Origin: an uncultured Actinomycetota bacterium
Lineage (GTDB): Bacteria > Actinomycetota > Actinomycetes > JAHEKZ01
Assembly (NCBI GenBank): GCA_963743915.1
Contig: CAVURN010000001.1
Span: 736,001 to 800,000 of the forward strand
DNA: 64,000 nt
Direction of reading: 5' to 3'
A model generated the notes under the pieces. It ran no database searches and was not told the DNA's origin. It saw only the letters and a program-made list of their open reading frames with translations. The translations under genes and the position numbers were made by a program. This document shows positions 5,630-29,634 of this stretch, one piece after another. Each line of letters starts with the position of its first letter. Position 1 is the stretch's first letter.

Positions 5630-6945
5630 TGTCAGATCGGCCCATGACGGTGCTCTTCATGCCGGAGTCGGCCTACGGGCCGACCGGGAACTGCATCGGG
5701 ATCGGTGACCTCCTGCTCCGCCGCGGCCACCGAGTCGTCTTCGCCGCCGAGGCGTCGTGGAAGGGCAAGCTGGAGCCGCTGGGATTCGTCGAGGATCTCG
5801 TCCACCTCGCCCCGCCGCCGCCCGAGGACGCCGGGGAGCAGGACGCCGGCGCCTTCTGGAAGGAGTTCATCCGCGACACCTCGCCGGAGTTCCGGAAGCC
5901 GACGGTGCAGCAGCTCGAGTCGTTCATCGCGCCCACGTACCAGGCCCTCATCGACGGAGCGAAGTACTGCGAACCGCACCTCCGCGAGATCATCGCCCGC
6001 CAGCGTCCCGACGTCATCGTCGAGGACAACGTGGTCGCCTTCCCCGCCCTGCTCACCTCCGGAGCGCCCTTCGTCCGGATGGTCAGCTGCAACCCGCTGG
6101 AGATCAAGGGTCCAGGCGTGGCCCCCACCTTCTCGGGACTGGCTGCGGACGACGACAGCGAGTGGGCGGCCTTCCGTGCGGAGTACGACCGCACCCACCG
6201 ACCCATGTGGGAGGACTTCAACGAGTTCGTCGTCGCATCGGGCGCGCCTCCACTTCCTGAGCTCGAGTTCATGCCGGTGTCAGAGCACGCGAACCTGTAC
6301 CTCTTCCCGCAGGAGGCCGACTACACCGACCGGCGACCGCTGGACTCCACCTGGCACCGGATCGACTCGAGCGTGCGCTCCACCGACGAACCGTTCGAGC
6401 TGCCGAGCGAGCTCGCCGACCGTCCGGACGGCTCGGCCCTGGTCTACCTCTCGCTCGGCTCACTGGGCAGCGCTGACGTCGAGCTGATGAAGCGCCTGGT
6501 CGACGTGCTGGGGCACACCCCGCACCGGTACATCGTGAGCAAGGGACCCCAACACACCGAGTACGAGCTCGCCGACAACATGTGGGGTGCGGAGTTCCTG
6601 CCCCAGACGTCGCTGATCCCGCTGGTCGACCTTGTCATCACCCACGGCGGCAACAACACCACCACCGAGTCCCTGCACTTCGGCAAGCCGATGGTGCTGC
6701 TCCCGCTCTTCTGGGACCAGTACGACAATGCGCAGCGCATCGACGAGCTCGGCTTCGGACGCCGGCTCCGCACCTACGAGTTCACCGGCGCCGAGCTGGT
6801 CGGTGCCGTCGACGGGCTGCTGAACGACACCGGTCTGCGGGAGCGGATGGAGGCGATGGGGGCAGCCATCCGCGCACGCCAGGGCAAGGAGAAGGCGGCC
6901 GACCTGATCGAGCAGGTCGCGCGGCAGCACCGCGACGGTGGATGA
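5629..6945 (+). CDS. GT1/MGT-family glycosyltransferase
   Basis: VYLSLGSLGS, FLPQ..L...DLVITHGGNNTTTESLHFGKPMVLLPLFWDQ (UDPGT signature). Confidence 0.9.
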   Translation: MSDRPMTVLFMPESAYGPTGNCIGIGDLLLRRGHRVVFAAEASWKGKLEPLGFVEDLVHLAPPPPEDAGEQDAGAFWKEFIRDTSPEFRKPTVQQLESFIAPTYQALIDGAKYCEPHLREIIARQRPDVIVEDNVVAFPALLTSGAPFVRMVSCNPLEIKGPGVAPTFSGLAADDDSEWAAFRAEYDRTHRPMWEDFNEFVVASGAPPLPELEFMPVSEHANLYLFPQEADYTDRRPLDSTWHRIDSSVRSTDEPFELPSELADRPDGSALVYLSLGSLGSADVELMKRLVDVLGHTPHRYIVSKGPQHTEYELADNMWGAEFLPQTSLIPLVDLVITHGGNNTTTESLHFGKPMVLLPLFWDQYDNAQRIDELGFGRRLRTYEFTGAELVGAVDGLLNDTGLRERMEAMGAAIRARQGKEKAADLIEQVARQHRDGG

Positions 6946-23238: not shown

Positions 23239-23311
23239 CTTGAACGGGCGCGGCACCGGTGGACCAGAGTGGAGCCCGGTGCCGAGATGCGGCGCGTTGG
23301 CAGGAGGCACA

Positions 23312-24809
23312 ATGACCAAGCACGTGACCCACTGGATCGACGGCAAGCTCCACGGCGGCGTCGCCGAGCGCCAGGGTGACATCTTCGACCCGGCCACCGG
23401 ACAGGTCAGCGGTCACGTCGACTTCGCCGACGTGGCCATCGTGGACGAGGCCGTGGCCGCGGCGAAGGCCGGCGTTCGCGCGAGTGGCGCCACGCGTCGC
23501 TCACCAAGCGGAGCCAGGTCCTGTTCAAGTTCCGTGAGCTGCTCGACGCCCGCAAGGGAGAGATCGCCGAGCTCATCACCGCCGAGCACGGCAAGGTGCT
23601 CTCGGACGCGCTGGGTGAGGTCACGCGCGGCCAGGAGGTCGTCGAGTTCGCCTGTGGGATCCCGCACCTGCTCAAGGGCGGCTTCTCCGAGAGCGTCTCG
23701 ACCCGGGTCGACGTCTACTCGATCCGTCAGCCGCTCGGCGTCGTCGGCATCATCTCGCCGTTCAACTTCCCGGCCATGGTGCCCGATGTGGTTCTTCCCC
23801 ATCGCCATCGCCGCGGGCAACGCGGTCATCGTCAAGCCGAGCGAGAAGGACCCGTCGGCCGCCAACTTCATCGCCGAGCTCTGGGCCGAGGCGGGGCTGC
23901 CCGCGGGTGTCTTCAACGTGGTGCACGGTGACAAGGTCGCCGTCGACCGGCTGCTCGAGCACCCCGACGTCAAGGCCGTCTCGTTCGTCGGCTCCACGCC
24001 CATCGCCCGGTACGTCTACGAGACCGGGACCAAGAACGGCAAGCGGGTGCAGGCCCTCGGCGGGGCCAAGAACCACATGCTCGTGCTGCCGGACGCCGAT
24101 CTCGACCTGGCGGCCGACCAGGCCATCAACGCAGGGTTCGGGTCGGCCGGCGAGCGCTGCATGGCCATCTCCGCGCTGATCGCGGTCGACAGCATCGCCG
24201 ACGACCTGATCGCGAAGATCACCGAGCGCATGGGGACCCTGCGCACCGGTGACGGTCGCCGCGGCTGCGACATGGGGCCGTTGGTCACCGCGCAGCACCG
24301 CGACAAGGTCGCCGGCTATGTCGCCGCCGGGGTCGAGGAGGGCGCATCGCTGGTGGTCGACGGCCGCGAGGTGCAGCCGGACGGTGAGGCCGGATGGCTT
24401 CTGGCTCGGCCCCACGCTGTTCGACAACGTCACGCCCGACATGAGCATCTACACCGACGAGATCTTCGGACCGGTGCTGTCGGTGGTGCGCGTGCACTCC
24501 TACGACGAGGGCCTCAAGCTCATCAACGACCACCCGTACGGCAACGGGACCGCGATCTTCACCAACGACGGTGGCGCCGCGCGCCGCTTCCAGAACGAGG
24601 TCGAGGTCGGCATGGTCGGCATCAACGTGCCGATCCCGGTGCCGATGGCCTACTACTCGTTCGGGGGCTGGAAGAACTCCCTCTTCGGCGACACCCACGC
24701 GCACGGCATGGAGGGCGTGCACTTCTACACCCGCGGCAAGGTCGTCACCAGCCGCTGGCTCGACCCGAGCCACGGCGGCATCAACCTCGGCTTCCCGCAG
24801 AACGCCTGA
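23312..24809 (+). CDS. mmsA: CoA-acylating (methyl)malonate-semialdehyde dehydrogenase (3 frameshifts)
   Basis: [69 protein letters not shown]. Confidence 0.85.
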
Positions 24810-24899
24810 GCCGGCGTCCCGCAGAACGCCGAGCTGCTCACCTCGCTCACCCGCTTGGGTGATCGACCCGCGAGCGCTCAAGGTCGATGCTTACTGACT

Positions 24900-25424
24900 G
24901 TGAGCACCGGGGGAGCACGCGACGTCATTCGGGTCATCACCGACTTCCGGAGAGCGTTGGGCGAGGTGGCGCCGCAGGACTGTCCTGAGGCTGCCGCCGA
25001 GTTCCTCTGTGAGCTCTTCGAGGGCTCGGCGACGGCGCTCAACCTGATGGACTACGGCCAGACCCGGTTCCAGACCGTGACGAACGTGGGTCGGCTGACG
25101 CGGGACGAACGCCGCGTGCCGCTGGGTGAGTACTACGGGTTCGCCGACTTCCCCATGACGACGCAGGCGCTGGCGAAGGGTGCGGCCTACCGGTCCTCCC
25201 TGCTCGACCCCAACTGTCCTCCGGAGTACCGCACGCTGTTGAGCGCGCAGCGTCGCACCGATTGCATGGGGGCCCCGATCCGCCTCTCCGGCCGTCCGGT
25301 GGGGGAGTTCTGGGTCTCCCGTGACTCCGGTCGGCCCTTCACCGAAGTCGACGAGGACTTGGCGGTCGCCTGCGGCGCCACGCTCGCCCGCTACTTCCGG
25401 CCGAGCTGGGCTCACGCCGGCTGA
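24900..25424 (+). CDS. Stand-alone GAF-domain protein
   Basis: YGFADFPMT, CMGAPIRLSGRPVGEFWVSR..RPFTEVDEDLA GAF pattern; start uncertain (24855 or 24900). Confidence 0.6.
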   Translation: MSTGGARDVIRVITDFRRALGEVAPQDCPEAAAEFLCELFEGSATALNLMDYGQTRFQTVTNVGRLTRDERRVPLGEYYGFADFPMTTQALAKGAAYRSSLLDPNCPPEYRTLLSAQRRTDCMGAPIRLSGRPVGEFWVSRDSGRPFTEVDEDLAVACGATLARYFRPSWAHAG

Positions 25425-25451
25425 GTCGTTCCCGGTCGGTAGGGTTCGCGC

Positions 25452-26480
25452 ATGACGCGCTACGGCCCCATGTTCGGCCCTGACATCACCTTCCTCGGCG
25501 TGCCCGCCTGTGACCTCGACGAGCCGGACACGTACGCGGACGCCGACGTGGTGATCGTGGGTGCGCCGTTCGACGGTGGCACCAGCCACCGCCCTGGCAC
25601 GCGGTTCGGTCCCATGGCCATGCGCTCCACCGACTACCTACCGCACGACGGCGTCCGCCCGCACATGGCGATGCGGGTCGAGGCCTTGACCGAGGACCTC
25701 CGCGTGGTCGACGCGGGTGACCTCGAGGTCTACTCGGGCGACGTCGTGCGCAGCTGTCAGATCATCGAGGACGCGGTGGCCACCATCGCTGAGTCCGGCA
25801 AGATCCCGCTCGTGCTCGGCGGCGACCACACCGTCACCTGGCCGGACGTCACCGGGGTCGCCCGCGCCGCCGGCTACGGCCGGGTGTCGGTGATCCACTT
25901 CGACGCCCATGCCGACACCGGCGACATCGAGTTCGGCTCGCTCTACGGACACGGCCAGCCCATGCGCAGGCTCATCGAGTCGGGTGCTGCGCGCGGCGAC
26001 CGCTTCCTGCAGCTGGGGCTGCGCGGCTACTGGCCCGGCCCGGACATCCTCGACTGGATGGCCGACCAGAACATGCGTTCGTTCCACATGAGCGAGATCG
26101 TCGCCAAAGGCCTCGACGCGGTGCTGGACGAGGCCTTCACCATCGCCACCGACGACTGCGACGGGATCTTCCTGTCGGTCGACATCGACGTCTGCGACCC
26201 CGGGCACGCCCCCGGTACCGGCACCCCGGAACCGGGGGGACTGACCGCCCGCCAGCTGCTCGACGCCGTCTCGCGCATCTGCTACGAGCTGCCCGTGCTC
26301 GGCGTCGACGTGGTGGAGGTCTCCCCGCCCTACGACCACGCCGAGATCACCGCCTTCCTGGGCAACCGGGTGGTGCTCGAGGCCCTCTCCGGCATCGCAC
26401 GACGCCGCAAGGACGGCGGCCAGGTGCGCTGGGACCGGGCCACCCCGCTGCTCGACGGGCGTGGCTCCGGGTCCGTCTGA
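25452..26480 (+). CDS. speB: Agmatinase (ureohydrolase)
   Basis: GGDHT, HFDAHAD, SVDIDVCDP, GTGTPEPGG, VEVSPPYD. Confidence 0.9.
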   Translation: MTRYGPMFGPDITFLGVPACDLDEPDTYADADVVIVGAPFDGGTSHRPGTRFGPMAMRSTDYLPHDGVRPHMAMRVEALTEDLRVVDAGDLEVYSGDVVRSCQIIEDAVATIAESGKIPLVLGGDHTVTWPDVTGVARAAGYGRVSVIHFDAHADTGDIEFGSLYGHGQPMRRLIESGAARGDRFLQLGLRGYWPGPDILDWMADQNMRSFHMSEIVAKGLDAVLDEAFTIATDDCDGIFLSVDIDVCDPGHAPGTGTPEPGGLTARQLLDAVSRICYELPVLGVDVVEVSPPYDHAEITAFLGNRVVLEALSGIARRRKDGGQVRWDRATPLLDGRGSGSV

Positions 26481-26643
26481 GACCCTCTCTGACCTGGGCA
26501 ATATCACTCTCCGTAACATCGCCTGACACTGTGTGTTCACCCGTATGGCGGTCTAACGATGTCGCTCTCCGGCACGAAGTAATCACTGTGGGGGTGACGT
26601 TGTGCACTTCCCGCTCGTCGCGACTGAAATGGGAAGGGGAGCG

Positions 26644-26751
26644 ATGAAGAACATCAAGTCAGAGATGGTGGTCCGAGGCAGCGCTGCTGCGGTGGGCCTC
26701 ATGGTGCTCGTGTCCGTTGTCGGGGCCGGCACCAAGTGGATGAACAACTAA
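26644..26751 (+). CDS. 35-aa hydrophobic peptide with C-terminal SVVGAGTKW motif (putative signal precursor 1)
   Basis: AAGGGGAG SD, ATG...TAA; MKNIKSEMVVRGSAAAVGLMVLVSVVGAGTKWMNN; paralogous to the next ORF. Confidence 0.8.
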   Translation: MKNIKSEMVVRGSAAAVGLMVLVSVVGAGTKWMNN

Positions 26752-26764
26752 AGGAGGCGATCAC

Positions 26765-26871
26765 ATGATGGACGAGCTCAAGGCTCGCGTGATCGTCTCC
26801 GTGCTGGGCAGCGCCGCCACGGTGGTGACCCTGGCATCTGTGGTCGGAGCCGGAAAGAAGTGGGCCGCTAA
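26765..26871 (+). CDS. ~35-aa hydrophobic peptide with SVVGAGKKW motif (putative signal precursor 2)
   Basis: AGGAGG SD; MMDELKARVIVSVLGSAATVVTLASVVGAGKKW; TAA at 26869-26871 is one base out of frame (restoring one G gives ...KKWGR*); as assembled it reads on to 27070. Confidence 0.7.
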
Positions 26872-26878
26872 CGACACC

Positions 26879-26917
26879 AGAAGGGGGAGCCGTCGATCGT
26901 TCGGCGGCTCCCCTTCT
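26879..26917 (+). terminator. Strong hairpin between the peptide genes and the sensor gene
   Basis: agaagggggagccgtcga-tcgt-tcggcggctccccttct. Confidence 0.6.
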
Positions 26918-28986
26918 TCGTCGTCCCGAGTGGGCGCTTTCGGCCTACATCTGGGCCGTCATCGTCGACGGGGCTGCTGCTCCTGGTCGTGTCACTCTTC
27001 CTGGCACCGCTGTCCGAGGCCTTCGGGGTCGACGCATGGGGCGGATACCCCTCCCAGGGACTCGTGCTGACCCTGCTCGTGGGCACGGTGATCATCGGGG
27101 AGCTGCGCCCCGTCCCGGTGCCGCGCGGCGGCGACACCGCCGACATGATCACCATCTCCACCACGTTCACCCTCACGCTGGCCATCGTGGGTCCGGTGAG
27201 CGTCGCCCTGCTCGCCCAGGCGGTCGCTGTGCTCATCGACGACGCGATCTCCCGTCGGTCCCCGGTCAAGATCGCCTTCAACGTCGCGCAGTACACGATC
27301 ACGGTGATGGCCGCCCATACCGCGTACTCCCTCGTCGTCGGCGAGCCGGTCTTCGGGCCCTACAACTACTTCGACCACAACGCGCTGGAGCTCGCAGGTG
27401 CCTGGTCGCCGCCTTCGTCTTCCTGCTGGTGAACCAGGCACTGGTCTCCACCGTGGTCTCGCTCGCCTCCGAGCAGCGCGTCCGTACCGTCTTCGTGCAG
27501 GACCTGCGCTTCCAGGCGATGACCGCCGGCGTCCTCTCGATCCTCGCCCCCGTGGCAGCGCTCGTGGTGCAGGCGCAGCCGCTGATGCTCCCGATGCTGA
27601 TCGCGCCGGTCGCTGCGGTCTACAACAGCGCGCAGGCTCGCCGTCGCGATGGGTCGTCAGGCGAGCCACGACGCGCTGACCGGCCTGGCCAACCGCGAGC
27701 TGTTCCGCGAGCGGGCGGTCAAGGCACTCGAGGACTCGCAGCGGACCGACCAGCCCCTGGCGATCATGATGATCGACCTCGACCACTTCAAGGAGATCAA
27801 CGACACCCTCGGCCACCAGGTGGGCGACGAGCTGATCTGCGAGGTCGCTCACCGGCTGGAGGAGGCACGGCCAGCGGGTGCCACGGTGGCCCGCCTCGGT
27901 GGCGACGAGTTCGCGGTGCTCCTGCCGGACATCCCCGACCTCTCGGTCGCTGAGGACGTGGCCACGTACCTGCTGTCGGTCCTCGGCAAGTCGTTCTCGG
28001 TGGGCGGTGTCCGGCTGGTGGTGCAGGCGAGCCTCGGCATCGCCCTTGCTCCTGACCATGGCGACGACGTCCACACGCTCATGCGCCGCTCCGACATCGC
28101 GCTCTACGAGGCGAAACGCGAGCGCGCACGCTTCTGTGCCTACACCTCCGAGGACGAGGACACCCACACCCCGCAACGTCTCACGATCCTCACCGACCTG
28201 CGGTCGGCGGTGGAGGAGGACGAGCTCTTCCTCGTCTACCAGCCGAAGATCGATGTCGCGAGCGGCGAGGTCGCCGGTGTCGAGGCGCTGGTGCGCTGGA
28301 ACCACCCCACCCGCGGCATCCAGTACCCCGACACGTTCATCCCGCTGGCCGAGAACACCGGTCTCATCACACCGATCACGTGGTTCGTGGTGGAGCGCGC
28401 CCTCCGTCAGGTGCGGACATGGCAGGAGAACGGGATCGACCTGTCGGTCGCGGTCAACCTCTCGGTGCGCCACCTCACCGACATGAGTCTGCCGGACCGG
28501 ATCGCGGTCGCCCTCGAGCGCTGGGGGGTGGCACCGTCCAAGCTGGTGGTCGAGGTCACCGAGAACAGCATCATGACGGACCCGAAGCGTGCGACGGTCG
28601 TGCTGCAGCAGCTGCGCAGGATCGGCGTCGAGATCGCGATCGACGACTACGGCACCGGCCATGCGTCCCTGAACTACCTCAAGCGCTTCGACATCGACGA
28701 GCTCAAGGTGGACAAGTCGTTCATCATGAACCTGGACCCCGACTCGAGCGACGCGATCATCGTCGCCTCCACCATCGAGCTCGGCCACAACCTCGGGCTG
28801 CGGATCGTCGCCGAAGGGGTCGAGGACGCCGCGACGCTCGAGTGGCTCGGCGGCCTCGGGTGCGACATCGCGCAGGGCTTCCACATCGGGCGACCGATGA
28901 CTCCGGAGGCCATCGTCGAGGTCGTGCGTGAGCGCGGCGGGGACCACCGGTCCGCTGGTCCGCTGCGTCTGGTCGGGAGCAGCTGA
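26892..28986 (+). CDS. Multi-TM sensor domain plus GGDEF-EAL (diguanylate cyclase/phosphodiesterase); frameshifts near 26967, 27405 and 27636
   Basis: Hydrophobic N-terminal segments across three frames (GELRPVPV, ITISTTFTL, KIAFNVAQ, FLLVNQALV); HDALTGLANR, RLGGDEF, VEALVRW, DDYGTG, AEGVE, QGF; no clear start codon seen. Confidence 0.85.
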
Positions 28987-29634
28987 TGCTCGTCCTCGTC
29001 CTGTGCGTCTTGTCGCTCGCGTCGCCCGTGCTGTTCGGCGGGCAGATGTCGCGGCTCGCCTTCGTCCGGTTCCGTGGCTGGTGGATCCTGGTCGCGGCGC
29101 TGCTCGCGCAGATCGTCATCATCGAGGTGGTTCCCGACGCGAACCGCACGCTGCTGGAGAGCGTGCACATGGCGACGTACGTCGCGGCGGGCGCCTTCGT
29201 CGCCATGAACTGGCGGGTGCCGGGACTCCTGGTCATCGCGCTGGGGGGCGCCTCGAACGGCATCACGATCGCCCTCAACGGCGGGCAGCTGCCGGCGTCG
29301 CGACCCGCTCTGGAGATGGCGGGCATCGAGGTGGCCAACGGTGACTTCATCAACTCCGGTGTGCTGAAGGACCCCGTGCTGCCGCTTGCTGGGTGACTAC
29401 TTCGTGTGGCCTGAACCCTTTCCGTTCGCCAACGTGTTCAGCGTCGGGGATGTGCTGATCGTCCTCGGTACGCTCTACGGCGCTCACAAGATCACCGGGT
29501 CGCGTCTGGTCAAGCGCCCGTGGCGGCTGCCCGACGACGTCGAGGCGATGCTGCGGGGAGGCCGCGGGGACGCCGAGGTGCCGGCTGGGGCGGCAGAGGG
29601 GCAGTCCGGTCGTCTGCGGATGCGGTGCCGGTAG
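28986..29634 (+). CDS. DUF5317-like membrane protein (frameshift near 29389)
   Basis: TGATG coupling; GG..SRL..VRFRGWW, LGGASNGITIALNGGQLP, LGDYF, NVFSVGDVLIVLG. Confidence 0.75.

Follow-up and report, generated by a model that had tools for sequence, protein, structure and literature searches.

Paired hydrophobic mini-proteins encoded directly upstream of a MASE9-like GGDEF-EAL enzyme in Actinomycetota

Comparative sequence evidence confirms that two short, adjacent open reading frames, ORF A and ORF B, are real and strongly conserved coding genes under purifying selection, far beyond what chance would give. They lie in a 64,000-nucleotide stretch of DNA from an uncultured Actinomycetota bacterium, which is called the window here, and they belong to a small-protein family that is undescribed in Pfam, NCBIfam, and the literature searched. 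The conserved partners of the peptides are two only, a GGDEF-EAL membrane enzyme with a MASE9-like domain and a DUF5317 membrane protein, the latter of which is not dedicated to them. With a likelihood that we place a little short of even, the peptides serve the c-di-GMP enzyme as small partners that cross the membrane once and come from a transcript that would end at a hairpin, with ORF B coupled to the enzyme gene.

Two Small Genes under Purifying Selection

Both ORFs are present in the sequence as the original prediction had described them, a pair of paralogous small peptides that share a GAGxKW end (Table 1). A profile search of the genome itself matches the family at ORF A and ORF B only, with an E value of 2e-17, and finds no further copy. 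A 511-base query around the pair matched 12 of 13 same-genus and 17 of 19 same-family genomes at 67–80% identity, some of which hold extra copies of the pair, and at 18 other loci the two ORFs recur with A before B and with lengths of 33–35 aa each. Among 16 orthologues, nearly all third codon positions vary (29 of 32 in ORF A and 30 of 32 in ORF B), compared with 10 and 14 second positions, respectively. The Nei-Gojobori dN/dS in the stated frame is 0.14 for ORF A and 0.18 for ORF B; the other two frames give 1.8–2.7. These values and the third-position substitutions bear out the selection at the protein level that had been proposed for both peptides, and together with the profile matches in the genome itself and the strong Shine-Dalgarno sites they are the grounds on which we take the genes to be real. 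In an alignment of 29 sequences, residues M1, L22, V26, G27, A28, G29, K31, and W32 are invariant, and the sequence difference between A and B is located in the N-terminal two thirds.

Table 1. Features of the peptide module and its downstream genes (window coordinates)
Feature	Position	Strand	Remarks
Promoter/5′ leader of peptide operon	26497..26643	+	Alignment of 13 orthologues, 76% mean column identity
Element TCACCC-N4-GG	26537-26548	+	
ORF A Shine-Dalgarno site	26630-26640	+	Strong; sequence GGGAAGGGGAG
ORF A	26644-26751	+	35-aa hydrophobic mini-protein; ATG at 26644, TAA at 26749-26751
ORF A C-terminus			GAGTKW, then MNN
ORF B Shine-Dalgarno site	26752-26757	+	Strong; AGGAGG
ORF B	26765..26871	+	ATG at 26765; conserved start is the second ATG, 26768
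ORF B Lys-Trp codons	26858-26863	+	
Inferred GGDEF-EAL start codon GTG	26860..26862	+	Formed by ORF B AAG-TGG codons
GGDEF-EAL gene	26860..28986	+	N-terminal MASE9-like multi-pass domain; broken near 26866, 26968, 27400, 27633
GC-rich hairpin	26883..26914	+	Terminator-like; 10-20 nt past B's natural stop, inside first GGDEF-EAL codons
DUF5317 membrane protein gene	28986..29634	+	Start overlaps GGDEF-EAL stop by one base; split near 29390

A Single Missing Base Obscures ORF B and the Gene behind It

The length of ORF B in relatives is 33–34 aa; as assembled in the window, it runs on to 27070 and encodes 101 aa. Alignment with the orthologues reveals that the window is without one base directly behind the TGGGCC of ORF B, and this single missing base breaks both the stop of ORF B and the start of the GGDEF-EAL gene. 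Logan contigs from two DNA runs of two studies carry an extra A behind 26866 together with a C>A change at 26868, which yields the ending KKWAR-stop. These contigs are ~97% identical to the window (24 differences in 841 bases and 18 differences in 636 bases), such that the read comparison rests on ~97%-identical strains, the best share of any run against the window being 0.28. The original prediction had suspected a missing G near 26861–26866; the orthologues and the contigs of both runs agree that one base is missing there, but a base other than G may restore the frame. The same two contigs are without one base at 26968, and other DNA contigs exhibit one-base differences at 27400/27401 and 27632/27634. 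The sites at which the contigs differ are the exact places where the GGDEF-EAL frame breaks (26866, 26968, 27400, and 27633).

We infer from these comparisons that the 101-aa form of ORF B results from a one-base indel, which either arose during assembly or is a mutation carried by the population. A genuine 101-aa ORF would have counted against the short peptides, and the evidence went the other way: across the 18 other loci, the stop follows 1–3 codons past KW in 36 of the 37 homologous ORFs, the exception being a third, divergent ORF in one genome. An indel-rich assembly (5 contigs, 90% complete) probably lies behind the frame breaks, because frame changes also occur in an aldehyde dehydrogenase gene and in the DUF5317 gene, beside those in the GGDEF-EAL gene; other odd ORFs in the window may therefore be artefacts. 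In the aldehyde dehydrogenase-like gene (23240–24862) the frame changes by a single base, and in the DUF5317 gene the change falls at 29386–29396, near 29390. Two database proteins, P0039 (70 aa) and P0067 (103 aa), are B-type peptides that run past KW as does the 101-aa form in the window, and their run-on may stem from the same error of assembly at the G/C run or be a genuine, recurring variant.

An Unnamed Family with a Conserved C-Terminal Motif

The profile search places the family in 19 of the 20 genomes of the order, the one miss being a 76%-complete genome, and in several other actinobacterial families. Within the class, 65 of 401 sampled genomes were matched at E values up to 0.01, a tally that takes in one genome flagged as unpublished and about ten long-ORF matches taken as false. 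A search of 1.84 billion cluster representatives returned 71 matches at E values up to 0.001, and 67 of these clusters end 0–3 residues past the motif (as read from the table; 41 sequences were inspected). Variants in other families carry a K-F end in place of K-W. The second ORF of these families is short and hydrophilic or decayed, sometimes without a start, and still displays G-[RHY]-K-[WF] at its end. The C-terminal motif is the most general feature of the family and may act at the level of the ribosome or RNA as well as in the protein. A side observation is a third, divergent peptide with two KW motifs, in which GAGVKW is followed after 16 residues by GVKW near the end (L016/L070 ~6126–6275, G016:C3; P0084).

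No Pfam family matches ORF A or ORF B at E values up to 0.1, and NCBIfam contains nothing for ORF A or the 33-aa ORF B at E values up to 10; the one NCBIfam match, which we attribute to chance (0.099), is to the frameshifted 101-aa form only. Relatives in the databases are all unnamed or labeled “hypothetical protein,” and the Atlas holds unnamed 32–33-aa clusters only. The literature searched contains no mention of DUF5317 or of any of four 8-residue motif strings (supplementary lists of small ORFs were outside the scope of this search), and a search on small proteins together with GGDEF gave nothing relevant. The family escaped annotation because its genes measure ~100 bases and are found for the most part in lineages without cultures: the carriers are mostly metagenome-assembled genomes, and one cultured strain, Aquipuribacter sp. 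MA13-6 (L114), has the module.

Some genomes contain up to five or six pairs, among them one tandem triplication of the A-B pair with a period of ~510–530 bases (L064 5096–6351, G009:C70; L065, G004:C8), which is flanked by DUF1348/DUF2252 genes on one side and by a gene for an aromatic amino-acid lyase on the other. Orphan pairs have unrelated neighbors and lie far from any GGDEF-EAL gene, each with its own upstream element and its own hairpin, an arrangement compatible with a product that acts in trans.

A c-di-GMP Enzyme and DUF5317 Are the Only Conserved Neighbors

Of 15 more distant loci, 14 have one or more peptide genes directly upstream of, and on the same strand as, a gene for a GGDEF+EAL protein of ~700 aa; all other neighbors differ (IclR, PAP2, DnaE, sulfotransferase, LacI, and agmatinase among them). 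DUF5317 is next in 8 of those loci, divergent in 1, and within ~2.5 kb in the remaining five. Among the 46 genomes outside the order with a profile match, 33 carry it on one contig with DUF5317, at 2.2–2.8 kb upstream of that gene, a count for which coordinates were compared by eye and which includes matches as weak as E 1e-2; the synteny with DUF5317 validates matches of this strength. DUF5317 alone is far more widespread (183 of 401 genomes, a tally that includes six genomes flagged as unpublished), and the genome search found two DUF5317 matches in G000. Where DUF5317 occurs without the peptides (L155–L164; G104, G147, G295, G076, G038, G188, G059, G099, G140), biotin carboxylase genes adjoin it in 7 of 10 loci, which indicates that the peptides track the GGDEF-EAL gene and not DUF5317. 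A biotin-synthase-like radical SAM gene adjoins it in 1 of these 10 loci, and there are hints of a biotin-related role for the peptide-less branch.

Pfam identifies GGDEF (1.6e-46) and EAL (6.6e-74) domains in 27649–28983 of the window. The N-terminal domain of the enzyme comprises ~260 aa. MASE9 was matched in 19 of 22 sequences at E values up to 0.1, the best being 4.9e-6, by matches most of which score below the cut-off of 24.3 bits and which extend over positions ~55–175 of the profile only. One full-length enzyme reaches 28.4 bits against this cut-off of 24.3, and the first member, at 22.4 bits, remains below it. MASE9 (Pfam PF20972) has been reported as fused to HD-GYP and to GGDEF-EAL domains by Galperin and Chou, who suggested that it binds a ligand within the membrane; the available part of their text makes no mention of small ORFs or DUF5317 in connection with it (10.1101/2021.11.05.467447). 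As far as its available text goes, a paper on Actinoplanes concerns a different, untested membrane GGDEF-EAL gene (PMC6828939). The notion that A and B are split-off first helices of MASE9 was rejected, as inspection of the N-terminal domain of the enzyme reveals that it already has about seven to eight hydrophobic segments. A complex prediction for the MASE9-like domain with peptide A and peptide B, run without controls, scored 0.00 and gave no answer, which speaks neither for nor against binding.

The DUF5317 protein is recognized by Pfam (8.2e-13) on 28986–29393, and its second half, with invariant GD motifs, lies in the ORF at 29386–29634. The AlphaFold2 model of the DUF5317 protein of L069 (pLDDT 87.7, pTM 0.79) has a confident fold, with five longer helices plus a re-entrant stretch, rich in proline, that bears two invariant Gly-Asp motifs 18 residues apart. 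These two motifs prompted a comparison with LspA-like aspartyl peptidases, which was dropped: Pfam A8 matched only one of nine members, at an E value of 2.3. A PDB sequence search gave one chance match to a ribosomal protein and nothing relevant, Foldseek of the model against the PDB gave no match at E values up to 0.001, and a wide VIA-align search returned helical-hairpin matches only (Z up to 6.9, residues 11–78).

Upstream of the pair lie an arginase-family (agmatinase-like) gene and, before it in the window, the gene of a small GAF protein (24855–26480). The agmatinase-like gene recurs upstream in other genera of the family (L069, L070) and was not found there outside the family; its linkage is probably local synteny only.

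The Predicted Start of the Enzyme Lies inside ORF B

Followed backward, the GGDEF-EAL frame extends without a stop across the end of ORF B in all 12 intact orthologues of the order, and the only conserved canonical start is a GTG (or ATG) formed from the AAR-TGG codons of B. From this start to the conserved RRPxWAL...YIW, the spacing changes in whole codons only (22–24 codons), and no start or Shine-Dalgarno site after the hairpin fits in these 12 sequences. The same RTG overlap is observed in 5 of 14 further loci. Codon choice in ORF B is also biased: the first Gly of GAG is written GGA or GGG in B of 12 of 17 orthologues and in A of 2 of 17, against 35% genome-wide, and the GGR codon of B creates an SD-like GGAG ten bases before RTG. 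As the sequences are kin, this bias is no more than suggestive. Overlap and spacing point to translation of ORF B being coupled to that of the enzyme.

A Conserved Leader and a Covarying Hairpin Frame the Pair

Column identity in the leader exceeds that of many coding columns in the 13 orthologues. The TCACCC-N4-GG element within it is present in 25 of 35 modules, about 105–113 bases ahead of the first ATG and within a span of −86 to −139, and in 3% of random 220-nt windows of this genome. It is also found before orphan pairs (the modules with the element include L002–L018, L054, L057, L059, L061, and L064–L069), and it probably belongs to an operator or promoter that the modules share; we take it to resemble the direct-repeat boxes of OmpR-type regulators. 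A putative hairpin with a variable loop lies just 5′ of the Shine-Dalgarno site, and RNAalifold pairs C-rich tracts of the leader with that site. Covariation is seen in only 3 of 30 pairs, and a leader RNA structure is accordingly not claimed. Rfam, searched over 25000–28500 at E values up to 1, gave no match in the leader and only a subthreshold sucC match on the minus strand inside the GGDEF-EAL gene (27480–27556; 24.9 bits against a gathering score of 50, E = 0.027), which is most likely a chance match. Scans for consensus promoters and terminators found nothing.

The GC-rich hairpin behind ORF B has 14 pairs, 8 of which exhibit compensatory double changes in 15 sequences, and behind 30 of 34 modules, those of orphan pairs among them, there is a hairpin at least as stable as −28 kcal/mol. 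It is without a U-run and hence is not called by a simple terminator scan; actinobacterial terminators often lack U-runs. We read the hairpin as a probable terminator or attenuator, through which the peptide message would stay abundant and little enzyme would be made. In two studies, metatranscriptome contigs span 26598/26607 to 26862/26863 at 99% identity with 2 differences each, and RNA depth is zero just upstream of the pair and lower downstream. As the contig ends coincide with variable sequence, these contigs are a weak hint of transcription.

The overlap and the hairpin raise the alternative that the small ORFs are mainly cis-acting upstream ORFs, in which G-x-K-[W/F] would slow termination, or hold the ribosome near the hairpin in some other way, and so control termination or read-through and re-initiation at the GGDEF-EAL gene, the peptides themselves being secondary. 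The alternative accounts well for an enzyme start inside the KW codons of the last ORF, for a covarying hairpin that starts 0–20 nt past the stop and so within reach of a terminating ribosome, for the SD-like codon bias in B, and for the second ORFs of other families, reduced to hydrophilic or start-less remnants with the G-[RHY]-K-[WF] end kept. It is nevertheless unlikely in our judgment. Conservation of A and B extends along the full length and is not limited to the end, peptide A is equally conserved though nothing overlaps it, and the K-F variants without RTG still keep the motif. The hairpins of orphan pairs have no regulated gene behind them. The distance from KW to the stop is 0–3 codons and not fixed, whereas the spacing of motif to stop is fixed in known arrest peptides.

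A Predicted, Marginally Hydrophobic Membrane Helix and No Support for Cleaved Signals

Hydropathy analysis agrees with the original prediction of a charged N-terminus and a hydrophobic core in both peptides. The best 19-residue Kyte-Doolittle means are 1.5–2.35 in all 39 sequences and at least 2.0 in 33 of them, with a value of 2.07 for ORF A. On the biological scale, the best 19-residue windows have insertion sums between +0.1 and +4 kcal/mol, a marginal degree of hydrophobicity. Small residues form a stripe every 3–4 positions. Such residues abound in the predicted helices, which with their marginal hydrophobicity would belong to a type that usually packs against other helices.

The proposals that the peptides are cleaved at a lipobox-like site and that their differing tails encode two specificities are not supported. 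The tails past KW comprise 0–3 residues (MN, MH, MR, MA, and MGN; AN, AR, AHH, and A among close species) and are absent in some lineages, in which the protein ends at KW; tails that vary freely and can be absent leave a cleaved signal with a specificity tail without support, and the difference between A and B resides elsewhere. No Cys follows GAG in the 29 aligned sequences, only 2–6 residues stand after GAG and could be released, and Pfam scans of 20 loci found no peptidase family among the neighbors.

The same observations bear on a broader version of this proposal, in which the peptides are exported or processed signals: the hydrophobic part would serve for export or insertion, and the MASE9-like sensor would detect a short C-terminal piece, or the entire peptide, from outside, so that c-di-GMP would receive an input of autocrine or quorum type. 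Signal-peptide-like in layout, the peptides have the small residues V-G-A-G ahead of the tail, the genes are linked to a membrane sensor enzyme, and some genomes have extra copies and a tandem triplication; extra copies and tandem repeats are known for pheromone genes. We consider the proposal improbable all the same: the 2–6 residues to be released are the least conserved part and sometimes just x-K-W, there is no Cys for a lipobox, the 20 loci contain no conserved peptidase or exporter gene nearby, and the comparison of DUF5317 with LspA gave nothing usable. The hydrophobic part is the best conserved, which would be unusual for a discarded signal sequence. Very improbable, finally, are membrane-damaging small toxins or two-peptide bacteriocin-like products with an incidental GGDEF-EAL neighbor, since, for all that the genes are small, hydrophobic, multicopy, tandemly repeated, and found as orphan units with a long conserved 5′ leader able to mask the Shine-Dalgarno site and a strong terminal hairpin (reminiscent of type I toxin messages), the pair is always ordered A-B, keeps fixed synteny and frame overlap with the enzyme in several families, and has no immunity, ABC-transporter, or double-glycine leader features in Pfam scans of 20 loci.

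Discussion

The reading that we prefer, that of membrane partners of the c-di-GMP enzyme, starts from what is observed: real genes under selection, synteny, reading-frame overlap, and hairpin covariation. In this proposal, A and B would be two paralogous single-pass membrane mini-proteins of 33–35 residues, each with a short charged N-terminus, a helix rich in Gly, Ala, Ser, Thr, and Val, and GAGxKW as an invariant interface motif. Their own conserved promoter and leader would give rise to a short, abundant peptide message that terminates at the GC hairpin. Read-through past the hairpin would produce a ribosome-coupled message that extends into the MASE9-like GGDEF-EAL gene and then DUF5317. 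With its start at the GTG inside the Lys-Trp codons of B (in this order), the enzyme would be produced only on messages on which ribosomes had just translated B, and it would be far scarcer than the peptides. Once inserted in the membrane, the peptides would bind the sensor domain of the enzyme, and possibly DUF5317, as partner subunits or intramembrane ligands and would tune c-di-GMP turnover; the orphan A-B pairs of some genomes would add to the dose.

Several points weigh against the partner reading. The insertion energy is marginal (+0.1 to +4 kcal/mol), orphan pairs lie far from GGDEF-EAL genes, and DUF5317 occurs also without the peptides. Because the motif is kept in hydrophilic second ORFs, it should have a role that is independent of a membrane helix; a function at the level of the ribosome or RNA would fit this at least equally well. 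A bolder form of the partner reading, which we regard as doubtful, would make the KW peptides dedicated intramembrane ligands of the MASE-type sensor, with c-di-GMP set by the amount of peptide from linked and orphan pairs under the shared element and with the G-x-K-[W/F] end also gating synthesis of the enzyme.

The arrangement is reminiscent of small single-pass membrane partners such as MgrB or SafA with PhoQ, KdpF in KdpFABC, and CydX with cytochrome bd. Like these, the peptides have fewer than 50 aa and one hydrophobic helix (here predicted), and their genes lie beside or overlap that of a large membrane protein; KdpF is likewise encoded by the first, overlapping gene of its operon. In contrast to these systems, to which no sequence relation was found, the family has two paralogous peptides, an invariant GAGxK[W/F] end, and orphan copies, and the candidate partner is a GGDEF-EAL c-di-GMP enzyme with a MASE9-like domain. 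To our knowledge, no small-protein partner has been described for such an enzyme.

With the regulatory leader and arrest peptides TnaC, SecM, MifM, and SpeFL, the module has in common a short ORF directly upstream, a C-terminal motif by the stop, and an RNA hairpin before the regulated gene. It differs from them in the conservation of A and B throughout, the variable motif-to-stop spacing, and the orphan copies. At 33 aa, moreover, the peptide is too short for its helix to exit the ribosome before termination, which rules out force-sensing of the SecM/MifM type. The signal-peptide-derived pheromone precursors of Firmicutes (Phr, PapR, AimP, and SHP) are similar in size and also have a charged N-terminus and a hydrophobic core; here, unlike in those precursors, the releasable piece is the least conserved part, perhaps three residues long, and there is no linked cytoplasmic receptor or oligopeptide permease.

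For genome interpretation, the window illustrates how a single-base assembly error can hide the stop of a small gene together with the start of the next. For the biology of the family, there is a long-standing gap around the signals to which the MASE-type membrane sensor domains of c-di-GMP enzymes respond, and the mini-protein pair, tied to a MASE9-like enzyme by gene order and frame overlap in several families, is a testable candidate for a partner or input. The cultured Aquipuribacter strain carries the module, so that experiments are possible. If the bolder reading were true, the KW peptides would for the first time give a MASE domain a known cognate input.
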